Shown: piece by piece, positions 3,836 through 62,525 of the stretch
How the letters are laid out: each line of letters starts with the position of its first letter
Position numbering within the stretch: position 1 is the first letter of the stretch
Assembly (NCBI GenBank): GCA_964234715.1
Contig: OZ174283.1
Reading direction: 5' to 3' (one strand)
Source: Podarcis melisellensis
Lineage: Eukaryota
Length of the DNA stretch: 64,000 nt
Position numbers and translations under genes: made by a program
The notes under the pieces: generated by a model
Database searches by the model: none
Seen by the model: the letters and a program-made list of their open reading frames with translations, nothing else
Told to the model about the DNA's origin: nothing

Positions 3836-3892
3836 TTAGAGCTTTACAGTCACGACACAGGCCCCAGCTCTTCCGAGGCACAATGGTGCAAC
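3836..3892 (-). CDS. KLHL5: KLHL5 last coding exon (VAPLCLGRAGACVVTVKL*)
   Basis: TTTCAG| acceptor; TAA at 3838-3836. Summed CDS is 2130 nt = 709 aa + stop. Confidence 0.96.
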   Translation of the reverse strand, partial: VAPLCLGRAGACVVTVKL

Positions 3893-5536: not shown

Positions 5537-5708
5537 CTGTGTCCACTCATTTGTCTGGGGGTCATAAGACTCCACCGTGTTAAGGTAGGTCTGTCCATCA
5601 TATCCCCCAACAGCATACAATCTGTCTCCAAGAAGGCAGACTCCCACTGCATCTCTGCTGATGCTCATGGAAGCTACGGCAGTCCACATGTCAGTTTTGG
5701 GATCATAC
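5537..5708 (-). CDS. KLHL5: KLHL5 coding exon 10 ([14 protein letters not shown]...TNEWTQ), 172 nt
   Basis: TTCAG| acceptor, CAG|GTATTG donor, phase 2-0. Confidence 0.97.
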
Positions 5709-6766
5709 CTGAATTAAAAACAACAGTGTAAGGGTTAGTTCCATATGTCTGAAGTTCTGCCAAGAGAGTATTATATATGCTATTCTAATTTTTCCTGTTA
5801 CTCCACACCCCGTATACTGTAGTATTTCAGAACTTCTTCTGACGGATTTCATTGCAACTTCACCTAGATCTTTTGCTTTCTTTCATCACTGTTGGTACCG
5901 TTCTTACACATACACAGACCCTGTTTGGAAGTGCATTCCCGGCAAGCTATTTGTCAAATTGAGAACATGTTCATCCTACCCCTTAACACATTTATCTGAA
6001 TCAGCTTAATCCACTTTTCCCCATTTTGTCCAAGATGAAGATCTGTGGTTTAATGCCATGGTCCAACATAATGTTTTCAGACATTCGGCCACGTCTCCCC
6101 ATTCTGGACATAATAGAGAACTGTAGTTTTAAGCTAACCAAGATATGAATACAAACAGGAGAGCAGAGGAATGAAAGCACAGGCCTGGTGCTCATTGCCA
6201 GCTTACTAAACTGACTTAGCAAGCCAGGAATCTACATCTGAGCTGGGTGAGACGTATGATAGATTCTCTTGCTGCAGACTGCTTCTGAAAACGAATTCTT
6301 TATAGAATTTGACATCTCTCATATAATTTCTTTTTTGCTGCTTTATTTTTAAAATATCCTCCATAGAATTTGCACTTCTGTTTCGGTTAACTAATGTCTT
6401 TGTTTACCAACATTCTGACCCAAGTTGGTGGATTTTTACTACTATCCTTTTAGTTAACAGCATCTTGCCCAAAGCCACACAACAAATCTCCAGTTGTGGT
6501 GAAACACAAACCCTGGCCCATGCCAAATCTCTCTGAATGGTGTCTCTTGCAACTGTTCTATAAAAAGTGCTACCATTGCAGAAATACTCCAAATCAATTG
6601 CTTCTACATAACCTGTATCTTTTACTTTTTAACCTCCTTTTCTGCATCCTCCTGCACTATATGCTCAAGTGTTAAATGCAGATAATTTTAGGATGCTGTA
6701 AATGAGGGAAATGGGACAGCGAGAACCTTAAGTATCTTCATAGCAACACATTATTGCGTTAATACC

Positions 6767-7201
6767 TGTCAGGGAACTGCCATCGGAGCTAGAGGTGGAG
6801 GGAAGGCTCCAGAGGGATGCCGGAGAGGGTCCCAGTAGGGAGAGAGGCAGCCCATCTGCTGGGGAAGGAAATCAGCTTAACACCAGTGGAGAAGGGGGGC
6901 AGATGGGGGAATCGGAGAGGAGGCTCCAGGACTCTTCACTGGAGACCAGCGGGGAGAGCACGGGTACTCCGCTGCCCACACCCTCCCTGTGCAGAAGACT
7001 TCCGCGCAGGGAGAGTAGGAGGAGACTTGGCGTCAAAGAACTTCTTTGCTGGAAGAAGTTCAAGAAACGCCCACTGCCGGATTCTGCCAGCGACTGAGAC
7101 AGCCACAAAGTGAAAGGCTGCCCAGACAGAAAGGGTTCAACCAGGTAACCTAGCCAGGAGTGGCGGCAACTTACGCACGAGCAACCCCTATAACCATTAC
7201 A
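6767..7201. mobile_element. Solo LTR (435 bp) with 5-bp TSD ATACC
   Basis: GC-rich block bounded by TG(TCAGG)...(ATTA)CA, with identical ATACC at 6762-6766 and 7202-7206. Confidence 0.8.
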
Positions 7202-7205
7202 ATAC

Positions 7206-7418
7206 CTTTCCACACAGTCAGACAGCCTGGATGTCAAGTTGGAAGCTGGTGCATCATGGCCTCCAATAGCATAGAGAAACCCATTCCAGGTGGTCACCCC
7301 AACGCCACCTCTTCGTTTTGACATCTGAGCACAGAGTGTCCATTTGTTAGTATGAGGATCAAAGCATTCTACAGATTTGAGACAAGAACTTCCATCTCGA
7401 CCACCAACTGCATATAAC
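7206..7418 (-). CDS. KLHL5: KLHL5 coding exon 9 ([17 protein letters not shown]...LSDCVER), 213 nt
   Basis: TTACAG| acceptor, AG|GTATTG donor, phase 2-2. Confidence 0.97.
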
Positions 7419-8475
7419 CTGTAAGCATACAAATACGTGTATGAAATACTTTCTGAACACACACACAAAAGAGTCAAGCAGGCATTGAATTAGATGGCTT
7501 ACTGCGGAATAAAAATAGCATTAAGTCTAACACTTTAAAATCTTCCTCAGGGACAACGAAATCTGCTGCTGCCTTTGCTTCAGAGAGAACTCTCTTGGGA
7601 TCCTATTTCTGAAAGAGTAAGTCTCACCCATTTTCTGATGCTTCTCTTAAAACCTACCTATAGTTTCTTGGTAACAAAGTAGCAGTTTTAAATAACATCT
7701 TTGTCTCAATTCATTTCCACCTCAGTAGGTGGTGCAGCTTGCCCTTTGATGTTGCATTTAAATCTGAAAGTAATAATGTAATTCTAAGCACATTTATGGG
7801 CTCATTTGTACAACAGATTTGAAAGTTTTATATATGTTACATTTTTCATCCCATTACTTGTGGGATTTTCCATTTCTAAATAAACGAAGATGCAAAAAAA
7901 TTCAAAAATATCAAAAAAGGAAGCATATAATTTATGAAAAAGTGCATTATAAAAAACAACACAGTAAGAGGGTTTCCTACAATGATAGCTATTCCGATAC
8001 TTCAAGGAAGGAATAATATTTCTCAGAAAAAACAAGAACTTCTTGTTTTTCTTTCTTAAAGTGGATAAAATTGTCAGTTTCTCTTCAGCCATCTTACTGC
8101 TAAAGACAATTGCTTATGTTACCATTTGAGTTATTTGTTATTAAAAATACATTGCTAGATTTGACTAAGTCAAATTACTGGAACCATTTCTAGGACAAAA
8201 GAAGTCCTGCCTGCAGTCCTGAAACTATTAAACATCCAAAAGGAAATTAACAGTAAGGATTTAATGAGCACTGGATGTTTCCTGATACCCACTGAATATT
8301 TTAACAAGAAGTGGATAGGACAAAAACATGCATACACAGCATCATTCAAAAGCCAGACACGCTGAACTTCTGGTAGATGACTTCATTCCAGTGTTACTAA
8401 ATTTCCTTTATATATGAGTTTTGAGTAAAATGTTATGGAATATTTGCCCTTATTTCTCTCTTTAGTCCTACTTAC

Positions 8476-48412: not shown

Positions 48413-48540
48413 AATAGAATCATAGAGCAGTTAGGGACCCCGAGGGTCATCTAGCCCAACCCTCTACAATGCAAGAATCTCAACTAAAAACCTCCAAGGA
48501 AGGAGACCCCATTACCTCCAGAGGAAGTCCACTGTCAAAC
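48413..48540 (-). mobile_element. CR1 3' fragment
   Basis: ATAGAATCATAGAG...GGGTCATCTAGCCCAACC...AAAACCTCCAAGGAAGGAGA. Confidence 0.7.
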
Positions 48541-48689
48541 AATGAGAGTCCAATTTTCACCTACAAGCATGCAATGAAAGAGTACGTGGGAACGCCTCCC
48601 CCTTGCCACCCAGTAGGCAGTTAGGTCGAGGGTGGTCCACAGATGGCAATCCTACACTAACTTTAAGCGACCACGGGGGAAAGGCGCTC

Positions 48690-49500
48690 TGCACATGTTC
48701 ATGCGCTCGCTCCTCCTCTGTCGTGACTTCGCGCCAACTCCGGGGTTCGCTTCCCGCATCCGGGGAGGGGAGGCGAAACTTCCGGAGCTCGAACCCAACC
48801 GCCCCTTGCCTGACGCGCGTCCTTGAGGAGAAACCGCCGCCAACCGCCTCCCCTGAGAATCCTTGCAGGAAGGCACAGGATGCCAGCCGCCCCCTCAGGA
48901 CGCCACACGCCGGAGCTGAGGGGGACGGCGCCCTGCCGCGGCTTCCCCCGCCCGAGCCCTTTCCTCACCTCGCTGCCGTCCCCCTGGGAGGGAAAGGCGG
49001 CTCCGGCCCCGTCCCTCTCGGGGAGGAAAAAGGCAAGTTGAGGCGAAGAGGGCGCCCCCTTCCCGGCCCCGACCGCCGCCGGCGGCAACTCCCAATTTCA
49101 CAACAAAGCCCCCCCCCTCCTCCTCGGGAACGTTGGGCCACGCCTCCCAATGGGCGGGGCGATACCAGCTGTGTGGCGGTTGAGCGTTGGCCACGCCCCC
49201 TGACCAACCGCCAACTCGCCTCGGTTCCTTCGCCTCCCCGCCCCTTCGCTGCCACATCGAACGTTGCTTCGGCGAGGAAAGCGGGAGTTGGGGAGGCGGC
49301 CGTTGGTCTCGCGCCGACCACCGCCCGCAGGCGCTCGCGACGGCAAAGCGCGGCGGGCAAGAAGCGGAGCGTTTACTTCCGCGAGCTCCGAGGAAGAAGA
49401 GGCGGCTGAGGCGGCAGATGGGATGGCCCGGAGGGCGGGTTTATGCAAAGCAGGAGCCTGGACGCTTTCTGTCGCCGCCTGAGGGAAGGAGCCGCCTGGG
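48690..49500. promoter_or_regulatory. KLHL5: CpG island, probable KLHL5 promoter
   Basis: Abrupt GC/CpG-rich block in CpG-poor surroundings, upstream of the KLHL5 coding exons. Contains CCAAT plus GC box (CCAATGGGCGGGGC ~49147-49160) and ETS-like ACTTCCG motifs (~48778, ~49375). Confidence 0.85.
48969..49130 (-). other. KLHL5: Probable non-coding first exon of KLHL5 (5' end approximate)
   Basis: Strong donor GAG|GTGAGG at 48969/48968 inside the CpG island, downstream of CCAAT/GC boxes; no ATG in the segment. Confidence 0.5.
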
Positions 49501-50050: not shown

Positions 50051-51817
50051 CATAAAATGTTAATCAGCCAAAGTTTATTTATTTTATTATTATTTTATTA
50101 TTACATTATTACAGCTATTGTTATTACATTTTTATTTACACCGTTGCTGAAAGGCTTGGCCCCGAGAACCATTTTTAAAGCCGCTCCTCATTCTGTATCA
50201 CAATCTCTGATTAATGACAAAGGTGCCCCTGAGCATGTGCAGAACAATCAGCCTTCTCTCTGTCTGCCTCAATACACATCAGATTGTGGGTCTGAACTTC
50301 CTGGTTGAAAGTGGTAAAAAGAAGCATACATAAAATCAAAACGATCCTCTTCAATATGCTTATTAATATTTATTTTTAATTCCACCCCTCCTCCATATCA
50401 AACAACAGCTAAAACTACCCCCCAAGGGAATCACCCTTACAAATAATTAGTACACTGCCATTTGCTGCTGCCATGGCAAATAACATGGATCAGACCATGG
50501 GGCCCAATAGATCTTGATTGTTTTCAATCTGGGATCCTCCCCAAAACAGTGTCAAAACACATTTCATCTGTCTTTACAGACTGGTCAAAAGTAAAATCCA
50601 GTAGAATTAAAATAGATTCATCTGAATTTGCATGATCCCCCCCAAAAAAGATACCATTCCCCCAACCACTATCAAAGTTTCCATTTTGTAAACTATGATG
50701 TACATAGAAGACTAATATTGTTTACTTCTAATGGACCTATTCATGAAAGTCTAGTTGTATGCTTAGCTTACCATAAGGTTGAAGTAGGATAATAATTTTT
50801 CTAAATATAACAAATTACTTCAGCTTTTAAATTACGTTATGAAAGAGAACATTTGTGGCTATGGTGGAGCCAGTGCTTTCTGGCACTGCCATGATGCAAA
50901 AAGAAGGAACCAAGACATGGATCCTCGTTAATTTTACACATATGCTCTCCATAATCTGTGCCAAAGCTATAATCTTGTCCATACCCACAGAACTTTATAA
51001 ACCACAAATCCTGCTCTTCACGGCACTGCAATGGCACAAAACATGGATCCACTGTGGATCTTTTTTTACACAGCATCCCACCAAAACAAACCAAATTACA
51101 GAGTACAGTATGTCCATGGCCACAAAATGCATAGTAAAATAATGGATTTGGTGCTTCATCGCCATAAAGCATGAATCCATGACTGCTATATATACAATAT
51201 GGGATGCCATCAAAACCACTATCAAAGCACTGATCACCTGTGTTGTCCATTTCTTGGGGTTTTTTTCCCCTCTAGTGACACTTTGAAACCCCAGATCTGT
51301 GATTCTAAATTGTAGTACAAAAGTACAGATGTGGTCTAAGTTGACATGTCTTGTATCAATAGCTTTGCATCATAGGTGCTGTGAAACACTGGATCCATGA
51401 TTTTAAAACAGTGGTATGATCTGTGAATATAGACACAATTGGTTATTTGACACTGATATGTATAGCATCATTGCAAAAATCCACAGGATGCACACTCCAG
51501 ATGTATGGTTTTCCCTCATGATAGTGCCAACAAGCACTACTATCAATCGTTTCACAGTCTGTCTGTGGATATCAATATGATCTCTGTAAGTTCATTGTGG
51601 TTTTTGAGACACTCCATATAAAAATCCAGATGACGAGTCATGTGTATGGACTATGACAGCATCATCAAGTGCCAGACATGTGATTTTTATGGTACGTTCT
51701 GTGTTCATTGACCTTAGCTTTGGATAGCATCCTATGTAAAAATCATGAGAAAAAATCATGAGAGTTCAGCCAGTCATCGCCTCAGAAAACATTGAAAGTG
51801 CACCTTTTACAGTTCAG

Positions 51818-54705: not shown

Positions 54706-54747
54706 AGGCGACGTTTCGACGAGGTCTCACTCGTCATCTTCAGGCTG
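54706..54747 (-). ncRNA. Minimal hammerhead ribozyme motif (left pLTR)
   Basis: Mirror of the 56221-56262 copy; predicted cleavage after 54710. Confidence 0.75.
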
Positions 54748-56076
54748 GTGCTTTCGGCTTCTTGTTACTGGAACAGAGCAGGATCTCAGTGTTTGAGTTC
54801 CTATAAATACTGTTGAGGGGGTGTGGTGTATAGCCTCCAATGTTCTGGGCAGAGAGGAAGTTCCCAGGCTAGTGTGCCTTTTCTTCTTTTGTTCCTTAAT
54901 TACTTGAGGGATATCTTGAGTGATTTCTTGAGTGATATCCTGAGTACCACTTAGGTGGGTCATTAGGTGTGGATTAGTTGCTAAAGTCTTTGTGTCTTGA
55001 CCTCTTGAACTTTGTGAAGAGTTTTTCTGAGAAGATGGCTGTACTGCACTTAGTTGTGCTCTGGCTTGGCTTCGTGTATAGGGGCGAGCTGTGGTTTTGT
55101 GGCCTGTGTCAGCCAGATCTGTGTAGGGATTGCAGGGGGGTGCAGCATCCGGAGGTGCCACCATGGTTTGGCTACTGGATGGTGTCTGTAATTTATCTGT
55201 GGAGAGGGTCTGGGTTTGGGTCTGGTGTGGTTGATTGGTGATGGCGTTCTGTGTGCCTCTGGATCTGGTGTCAGTTTTTGTGGGGAGGGCTAATTTCCAG
55301 ATGTCTGGCAAGCGGGATGTGTCGTCACGCTTGTTCATGTTGTGAGGGTGTTTCTCTATCTCGATGGCTTCCATGATTATTCTCTTGTGGTGATGTTCCA
55401 TGTTAAAGAGCAATTTGGAATCTGCAAAATTAATTTCGTGTCCTGTTTCTTTCATGTGTTGGAAAAGAGAGGAAGTTTTTTCTTCTTTTTTGACGGCATT
55501 CTTGTGTTCTGCGATACGTGCATTTATTCGTCTGTTTGTTTGTCCAATGTACGTGGCTGGGCAGACTTTGCAGGGTATTTCATAGACCCCTTGGTTTTCC
55601 AACTGGATTTTATCCTTGGGGTTTCTGAGGATATTGGCTATTTTTTGGTTGGTGCAAAAGGCTGTTTTGATATTGTGTTTATGGAGGATTTTGCTAATTT
55701 TATCTGTAGTGCCCTTGATATAAGGAAGGAGGGCCATGCCATTGTTTTCTTCTGTGTCTTGGTTTTTGGGGGGTGTTTCTTTTTGGATTAGCTTCGTAAC
55801 CCTGTTTTGCTGGTATCCATTGGCAATTAACACATTTGAGAGATTCTGTAACTCAGTTGTCAAGTGGTCTTTGTCAGCCAGGCGTTTGGTTCTGGAGATG
55901 AGAGTCTTGGCTACGGAGTTTATTTGTGCAGGGTGGTGGTGTGATTGTGCATGTAAGTAGCGGTTGGTGTGTGTTTTTTTCCGGTAGATAGTGTGTCCTA
56001 GGGAGCCATCAGGTTTTTTGTAGATTAGGACGTCAAGGAAGGGAAGTTGGTTGTTGGCTTCTATTTCCATAGTGAA
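54727..56076 (-). pseudogene. Truncated Penelope ORF: RT domains 6-7/thumb, GIY-YIG endonuclease, C-terminal extension
   Basis: FTMEIEANNQLPFLDVLI...YRKKTHTNRYLHAQSHHHP; GVYEIPCKVCPATYIGQT...RIAEH...H...EAIEI...MN (GIY-YIG with CCHH); no internal stops. Confidence 0.93.
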
Positions 56077-56220
56077 CAAAAGAAGAAAAGGCACACTAGC
56101 CTGGGAACTTCCTCTCTGCCCAGAACATTGGAGGCTATACACCACACCCCCTCAACAGTATTTATAGGAACTCAAACACTGAGATCCTGCTCTGTTCCAG
56201 TAACAAGAAGCCGAAAGCAC

Positions 56221-60451: not shown

Positions 60452-61847
60452 ATATCCTAATCATGGATCTCCTGTGTTACATTTAGTCTGGCCCTCAGTT
60501 GTACTAGGCCAATGCCAGGAAGTGTAAGCAAATGGGGGAGGGGGGAGGCTTTGAGGCAGTTCCAGGAAGCTGAAGCTGTGGGAAAGAGAATGTAAAACTT
60601 GGTGGATAATATTTATGTGTCTTGGAACATATAAAAGTTACCGCAGTGTAGAAAGAGTTCAGATTATATATAATTTTTCATTTTATAGCGGCATTATTAC
60701 CGGAGACAGGTTTATATTTGGTAGCAGCTGTTCTCCAAAATGTCACATTGACTGAATGCTGGAGCCAATGCAGAGTTTTGAAACCTAAAGGGAATAATCT
60801 TCTTTATGTGTCCAGATAGGAATTACACAGTGTAGTAAGAAGTGATTTATTTATTGTCCAATCAATAAAAATGTGAGATGTGAAGGGGAATTCTATAAGC
60901 CACACTATATTCGTAGTGAACGAATGGTTCTATGCTCACCCCAAACCTGAGGAAAAAAGCAGTTTTGTTTCAACAAGTCAGTGATTCTTTGTTCCTATAG
61001 AGATTTGAATTTACTATGTTTCCCTTATGACCATTCGTTCAACCAGCGCTGGGCCAAAATCTGTCTGCAGTTTATCAAAAGTTGTCTTCCTCTGAGACAG
61101 AGGCTTCCATTTTTATGCTTCCATTTTATACCTCGTTCCAAGGACAAATGAGAATTTCTTTAGAAAATTCTAAATGAGGGTTTTGAAGCTTACCTTACCA
61201 TTGTGAAGAGGCCAGGAGCGGTGAATTCATTTTACCTTCCAGTAAACACTTCTTCAGCACTCTGCAGCCTATCTGGTTGCCCCTGTATCTTAGAGGAAAA
61301 TGGAGGGAGATTGAGGGAGAACCAAATCAGGTAGCCTGGAAATGTGTGGGGTTCATGATTATTTGAGCCATGCAGACATATGGGACAATCAGGGTAGTCA
61401 CTAATGTTGCTAATATAGTGATAGACAGCTCAACAAAAGTTTGTGATGGGAAGAGTAGAGAGTCCCCAAGGGGCCCAAAAACATGTTCTTGTTATTAGAG
61501 GATTCCATGGGATCACATGTTTGGAGAATAAGAAGGAATTTGGTGGAAGCAGAACACGGCCTTATTCCTGTGAGGCTGAGCAATCCTGCTAACCATGCAC
61601 TTAAAGTTATTCCATGTCAACAGATGGGGATGACAACCCATATTGAGATGATGGAACAACTGCAAGTGCGTAGCCCAACTTTGTCAGAATATGGCACAGA
61701 GACAAACAATGAATAAAGAACAGAAATATGTTTCTGGAGAAATTGCCACCCTGGACTCCTTTGGGAGGAAGGGCAGAATTAATAACGTTCAATACATACA
61801 TACATACATACATACATACGAAAATCAAAAAGACATCCACAGGTCAA

Positions 61848-62525
61848 ATCTGTATCCAGGGCAGCTGTTTACCAGCTCCATCTGGTACATAGGCTGAGGC
61901 CCTATCTGCCTGCAGACTGTCTCGCCAGAGTGGTGCATGCTCTGGTTATCTCCCGCTTGGACTACTCCAATGTGCTCTATGTGGGGCTACCATTGAAGGT
62001 GACCCGGAAACTACAACTAATCCAGAACGCGGCAGCTAGACTGGTGACTGGGAGCGGCTGCCGAGACCATATAACACCGGTCTTGAAAGACCTACATTGC
62101 CTCCCAGTCCGTTTTCGAGCACAATTCAAAGTGTTGGTGCTGACCTTTAAAGCCCTAAACAGCCTCGGGCCAGTATATCTGAAGGAGCGTCTCCATTGTT
62201 CTGCCCGGACACTGAGGTCCAGCTCCAAGGGCCTTCTGGCGGTTCCCTCACTGCGAGAGGCCACGTTACAGGGAACCAGGCAGAGGGCCTTCTCGGTAGT
62301 GGCGCCCGCCCTGTGGAACGCCCTCCCATCAGATGTTAAAGTGATAAACAACTACCTGACATTCAGAAGACATCTGAAGGCAGCCCTGTTCAGGGAAGTT
62401 TTTAATATGTGACATTTTAGTGTATTTTTCATCTTTGTTGGAAGCCGCCCAGAGTGGCTGGGGAAACCCAGCCAGATGGGCGGGGTACAAATAATAAATT
62501 ATTATTATTATTATTATTATTATTA
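61848..62525 (+). mobile_element. L2 LINE 3' portion with (ATT)n tail
   Basis: VHALVISRLDYSN...LQLIQNAAARL...HITPVL...RAFSVVAPALWNALP; 3' UTR GAAGCCGCCCAGAGTGGCTGGGG; ATT repeat. Confidence 0.92.

Follow-up and report, generated by a model that had tools for sequence, protein, structure and literature searches.

In Podarcis melisellensis, a solo LTR lies exactly in the splice donor of coding exon 9 of KLHL5, and the insertion is probably near-neutral and tolerated, with exon 9 most likely still spliced at its own retained donor. Indeed, the exon keeps this donor and the LTR family favours target words of this kind, so that the insertion is likely to be an ordinary, tolerated passenger. The LTR occupies 435 bp on the + strand (6767-7201) of the window, that is, the whole stretch of 64,000 nt that was analysed, and is antisense to the gene; by direct read, its + strand starts with TGTCAGGG and ends with CCATTACA. 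On the gene strand (-), the five bases GGTAT, which correspond to the last exon base plus intron positions +1 to +4, are present both on the exon side (7202-7206) and on the intron side (6762-6766) of the LTR, and 440 nt separate the proximal from the distal donor, whose junctions are 7206/7205 and 6766/6765. The insert has TG...CA ends and a duplication of the length typical of its family on both flanks. Its solo status rests on this both-flank duplication; LTR-LTR recombination likely lies behind the solo form, and the empty site can be inferred from the duplicated target. The initial annotation had recognized the solo LTR, the 5-bp GGTAT duplication and their coordinates, together with the twin donors AAG|GTATTG and CAG|GTATTA, and direct reading of the letters bears all of them out.

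The gene was identified by protein search, its exon peptide sharing 96-100% identity with proteins named KLHL5 from squamates, turtle, birds and mammals. Coding exon 9 (7206-7418, -) is 213 nt long, has phase 2 at both ends and encodes kelch repeats 4-5, and its gene-strand (-) end reads ...GTGGAAAG directly; given this length and the equal phases, its skipping would stay in frame. Coding exon 10 (5537-5708, -) follows with its own donor CAG|GTATTG, and the last exon (11) contributes its coding sequence, stop included, at 3836-3892 (-). The same AAG|GT closes two paralogous exons of the same genome, presumably those of KLHL4 and KLHL1, and the end of KLHL5 exon 9 is thus ancestral. Exons 10-11, downstream of the insertion, are intact: the last 75 residues that they encode show no differences from Rhineura KLHL5 (P0004) and one to three differences from 50 of the 81 database tails of the same length. 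Intron 8 (7419-8475) and intron 9 without the insert (5709-6765) are both 1,057 nt long, likely by chance, and share no BLAST match. The intron flank gave a single match in G000, with no second copy or other haplotype. A GC-rich stretch at 48500-49500 precedes the first coding exon (33010) by about 16 kb and is likely the promoter island of KLHL5; if it contained a non-coding exon, the exon numbering would move by one.

As to the inserted element, a genome search retrieved at least 40 full-length LTR copies at 97-100% identity (40 were scored among 3,122 candidates), and the genome contains 1,434 exact matches to a 20-letter terminal pattern, corresponding to at least 1,434 LTR ends. Among 30 examined loci, 26 carry an exact 5-bp duplication, one carries a duplication with one mismatch, and three are ends of elements with internal sequence, so that the 5-bp duplication is a trait of the family and not a product of chance. 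In a full element (G000:C19:6353985-6359571), whose two LTRs lie 5.6 kb apart and are 96.8% identical to the KLHL5 copy, the internal order is gag, protease, reverse transcriptase (RT), RNase H, integrase, SH3-like domain and chromodomain. RT and RNase H precede integrase, as in Ty3/gypsy chromoviruses; the chromodomain at the integrase C-terminus matches PF00385 (E 5e-09), with PF24626 before it, and a polypurine tract precedes the 3' LTR. The coding order and the polypurine tract before the second LTR indicate that the LTR reads on the + strand of the window, and hence antisense to KLHL5. An endogenous retrovirus was discarded, as the 5.6-kb element passes from integrase-chromodomain to the 3' LTR with no env ORF. 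The LTR ends TGTCAGG and CATTACA fit the Sushi motifs TGTYANR and CNTNACA given in Table 3 of PMC3601003, and the element is probably of the Sushi type, a clade call made from these end motifs.

Compared with 28 close copies, the KLHL5 copy shows differences at 11-14 of its 435 sites; in the full element, the LTR pair differs at 12 sites, and rare letters number three in the KLHL5 copy against a median of five in 50 other ungapped copies. These values suggest a divergence since insertion of 0.7-1.4%, or a few million years at squamate substitution rates, which are uncalibrated. The time since insertion being so short, the unchanged state of exons 10-11 is weak evidence. Older LTR relatives (70-75% identity) adjoin young copies at two loci (L003 and L014). 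Elsewhere in the window, a 474-codon ORF at 54727-56151 (-) with a weak GIY-YIG match (E 5e-4, below the cut-off) is likely a fragment of a Penelope-like element, two overlapping protein-like hydrophobic frames at 50837-51369 (-), which match no Pfam family, are perhaps a broken processed pseudogene, and a 208-codon ORF at 61786-62412 (+), with no significant Pfam match, resembles the tail of a LINE reverse transcriptase.

The exact placement of the LTR, which the initial annotation had singled out, is real; it is not remarkable in itself, since GGTAT is about 17-fold over-represented among the targets of the family (16 of 1,434 LTR ends versus 0.9 expected). In particular, targets starting with GGT (GGTNN) are found at 72 of the 1,434 ends and targets ending with ACC (NNACC) at 69, versus 18.6 expected for each from flank composition, and GGTRN targets at 57, versus 9.2 expected. 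The target preference of the family is symmetric, for a GGT start or an ACC end, and about four-fold. With this preference, 0.3-1.1 strikes on real donors in this register are expected per genome, as compared with 0.11-0.16 under uniform targeting, both figures assuming 120-180 thousand suitable donors, the order of magnitude of the donor total. Thus, given the preference and the expected number per genome, the exact placement in KLHL5 is not special. A Pfam match was found in one, that of KLHL5, of 77 upstream stop-free stretches of at least 25 codons from 93 loci with donor-like targets, which include 30 of the 31 matches of one pattern and 30 of the 63 matches of the sense-orientation pattern AGGTRN plus LTR start. 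This Pfam scan of 93 loci, which Pfam-less, short and UTR exons escape, revealed no family copy in a real exon or donor beyond KLHL5.

The sense-orientation pattern was dropped as a target count, as 18 of 30 loci have no matching duplication and may be internal junctions. Contig C19 (38.8 Mb of 1,575 Mb) holds 26 of its 63 matches, mostly AGGTAC, an excess that may reflect an accumulation of full-length elements on a contig of low recombination. Two single loci also deserve mention: at L034 (G000:C1:102991776-102991796, -), a solo LTR occupies a word resembling an acceptor (pyrimidine run, CAG|GTAC) with no Pfam match upstream, and at L064 (G000:C10:72247542, -) a solo LTR interrupts a frame that is open for 162 codons before it and 81 after it, has no Pfam match and is perhaps another repeat. 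In the accessible literature, we found no description of landing in a host donor or of the GGT/ACC preference, the latter perhaps listed in repeat catalogues, and no title on the KLHL5 locus or the LTR family.

The most probable course of events is that a Sushi-type gypsy element inserted antisense at a favoured word that doubled as the donor of KLHL5 exon 9, and that the insertion duplicated five bases with the donor core staying on the exon side. LTR-LTR recombination would then likely have cut the element down to a solo LTR. Exon 9 would since mainly use the 7206 donor, while minor products, depending on a +31 donor, a 90/93-nt cassette or the 440-nt extension, would be removed by nonsense-mediated decay (NMD).

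The strength of the donors was evaluated by their pairing to the generally known 5' end sequence of U1, as a crude Watson-Crick count over 11 positions, ViennaRNA duplex energies being too coarse for ranking. The proximal donor AAG|GTATTG (7200-7208, -), in which +5 and +6 are LTR-derived, retains positions -3 to +5, and the insertion altered only +6 to +8. It forms 5 of 11 pairs, as compared with 6 of 11 for the inferred old donor AAG|GTATTA and 7-10 for the other KLHL5 donors, and is by this crude count the weakest of nine scored exon-end donors of the gene, a set that does not include the exon 1 donor. The donor of exon 10 itself reads CAG|GTATTG and the equivalent exon end of a paralog has AAG|GTACCC, which indicates that weak positions +4 to +6 are tolerated here. 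The rebuilt distal donor CAG|GTATTA (6760-6768, -) forms 7 of 11 pairs, and a candidate cryptic donor borne by the LTR, TGC|GTAAGT (7169-7177, -), which would add 31 nt, forms 6 pairs plus 2 wobble pairs. As the proximal donor pairs less than both of these, competition among the three is plausible.

Beyond the twin donors, the LTR brings features absent from the initial annotation, namely the candidate cryptic donor and a candidate acceptor, with other predicted premature-stop products, and an AG|GT geometry typical of recursive sites. In antisense orientation, the LTR is rich in pyrimidines and contains several AGs that resemble acceptors. Among them, the candidate tandem acceptor ...TTTCCTTCCCCAG|CAG| (6856-6875, -; junctions 6858/6855) has 12-13 pyrimidines out of 17, compared with 10-16 for real KLHL5 acceptors, the scores for exons 7 and 8 being approximate (1-2 nt). 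Together with the rebuilt donor, it would define a 93/90-nt cassette exon (6766-6858, -) with an in-frame TAG at 6791-6789, and use of the +31 donor would shift the frame, so that translation would end at the beginning of exon 10. A transcript is marked for NMD when its premature stop precedes the last junction by more than 50 nt. In all four predicted LTR-containing products the stops lie 166-278 nt before the last junction, so that these would be NMD targets.

On this basis, the allele could be a mild hypomorph, in which a sizeable share of the transcripts uses the +31 donor or the 90/93-nt poison cassette and NMD lowers the KLHL5 dose. The sequence of the cryptic donor, the pyrimidine content of the acceptor and the in-frame TAG are in line with such an effect, and antisense repeats are over-represented in pseudoexons according to the accessible part of PMC8819188, citing Vorechovsky 2010. 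However, the LTR-borne sites are family features and would be present on every antisense intronic copy (the cryptic donor is found in 24 of 29 family copies, and the tandem acceptor is identical in 26 of 29), the exonic part of the cryptic donor is poor, and the allele is also found in a second sample. We consider a hypomorph unlikely, and no evidence was found for the dosage effect that had been suggested for the insertion.

A different outcome would follow if the distal donor were used straight from exon 9, giving a 653-nt exon. The extension originally described is accurate, as it amounts to 440 nt and 110 LTR-coded residues, which follow ...CVER of exon 9, and closes with a TGA (6874-6872) that precedes the far junction by 106 nt (initially given as about 105). 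The product would be either an NMD target or a truncated propeller, predicted to lack half of kelch 5 and the whole of kelch 6. Of the three candidates, the distal donor pairs best with U1, and no stop interrupts the frame for 110 codons; moreover, Reed and Maniatis reportedly observed that duplicated donors can favour the copy nearer the 3' site. Yet a 653-nt internal exon between 1-kb introns would be poorly defined, as exon-definition limits disfavour very large internal exons, and by these limits the 440-nt extension is less likely than both the +31 donor and the 90/93-nt cassette. In addition, 27 of 29 copies share the open frame with its TGA, which marks these as a trait of the family, and no Pfam family matches the 110 residues. 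The LTR-coded extension is covered by none of the best 120 of 965 protein matches, a set from which a single fused protein could be crowded out. Use of the distal donor straight from exon 9 thus appears very improbable.

The far junction also allows the LTR to leave as a 440-nt intron of its own, from the 7206 donor to the AG at 6767-6766, which would rebuild AAG|GTATTA and, by recursive splicing, give a normal mRNA. The geometry is exact, as CA, with which the LTR ends, joins the duplicated G to read CAG|GT, and it fits the agGT criterion for recursive sites in the part of PMC8819188 available to us; it also resembles the duplication-supplied acceptors of introners in the accessible part of PMC11282704. 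However, recursive sites call for a strong acceptor, and at the far AG|GT the tract holds 9 pyrimidines out of 17 and another AG, 9 nt upstream, would compete. Moreover, the accessible part of PMC6224609 describes vertebrate recursive splicing as requiring a defined RS-exon and as repressed by the exon junction complex, and the intron is short, with no need for recursive splicing. Recursive removal of the LTR is therefore extremely improbable.

The near-neutral reading is also supported by the presence of the LTR-exon junction in another sample. Run X4, which represents a further sample of this organism and belongs to a different study, yields a contig of 1,856 nt, at depth 10.7, that agrees with 7177-7300 at every position and spans 25 LTR letters, the duplication and exon 9; the overlap is below the 31-letter bridging rule, and contigs of this kind show presence only. 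No joint skipping the LTR is listed in run X4. This junction argues against a private or assembly-only insertion and does not prove fixation, and the suggestion that the insertion is possibly polymorphic finds no support in it. In the filtered record set, run X4 is without most of intron 9, and neither exon 9 nor the intron is covered in relatives B, E and H (X5, X10 and X19); no run examined shows the junction of exon 9 with exon 10. Depth in the left-junction bin was excluded, as other LTR copies could supply reads, and LTR-family contigs in X19 were not accepted as expression, its being RNA a guess.

The KLHL5 insertion can be compared with several known systems. It shares with the Sushi chromovirus solo LTRs of vertebrates the gag-PR-RT-RNase H-integrase-chromodomain order, the LTR end motifs, the 5-bp duplication and the polypurine tract, while no description of the GGT/ACC preference or of the landing in a host donor was found in the accessible literature. 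In introners, a duplicated junction word yields splice sites that flank the insert, as described in the accessible parts of PMC11282704 and PMC3296678, and to this extent the supply or duplication of splice sites by transposon duplications is already known. The duplicated word likewise gives splice sites on either side of the KLHL5 LTR; unlike most introners, which are DNA transposons, the insert is an LTR retroelement. Since it lies at the start of an existing intron and not within an exon, no intron was gained, and a transposon-derived intron was rejected, as the insertion is at an ancestral exon end common to two paralogs. One may still ask whether the Sushi family is an LTR-type introner in waiting, with a one-step young recursive site or NMD switch at KLHL5. 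In this view, the integrase prefers G|GTR and the antisense end CTGACA plus the duplicated G reads CAG|GT, which would make exact splicing-out or a poison exon possible; as a whole, we regard this proposal as quite doubtful.

Retroelements at splice sites can disturb splicing, through skipped exons or pseudoexons, as reported in the accessible parts of the accounts of a LINE-1 at MET exon 14 (bioRxiv 10.64898/2026.02.19.706876) and of Alu/MIR pseudoexons (PMC8819188). The similarity lies in a retroelement duplication that overlaps a splice site and in an antisense repeat that brings cryptic sites; in contrast, those cases were found through a splicing defect, whereas in KLHL5 the donor core is kept and the allele is germline and present in two samples. 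As in recursive sites and RS-exons, the juxtaposed AG|GT would rebuild a donor with the upstream exon; unlike them, the KLHL5 intron is short, the acceptor is weak and there is no conservation.

All in all, if the insertion is near-neutral, as we consider probable, a conserved gene has survived a direct strike on a splice site, the duplication preserving the donor core on the exon side. The locus would also serve as a minigene provided by nature for the study of donor competition, in which three donors lie within 440 nt and the ancestral state is known, and, were poison or recursive use true, it would document how an LTR can give rise to a splicing switch in a single step. The GGT/ACC preference is the more general result, as it lifts the donor strike rate of the family several-fold.
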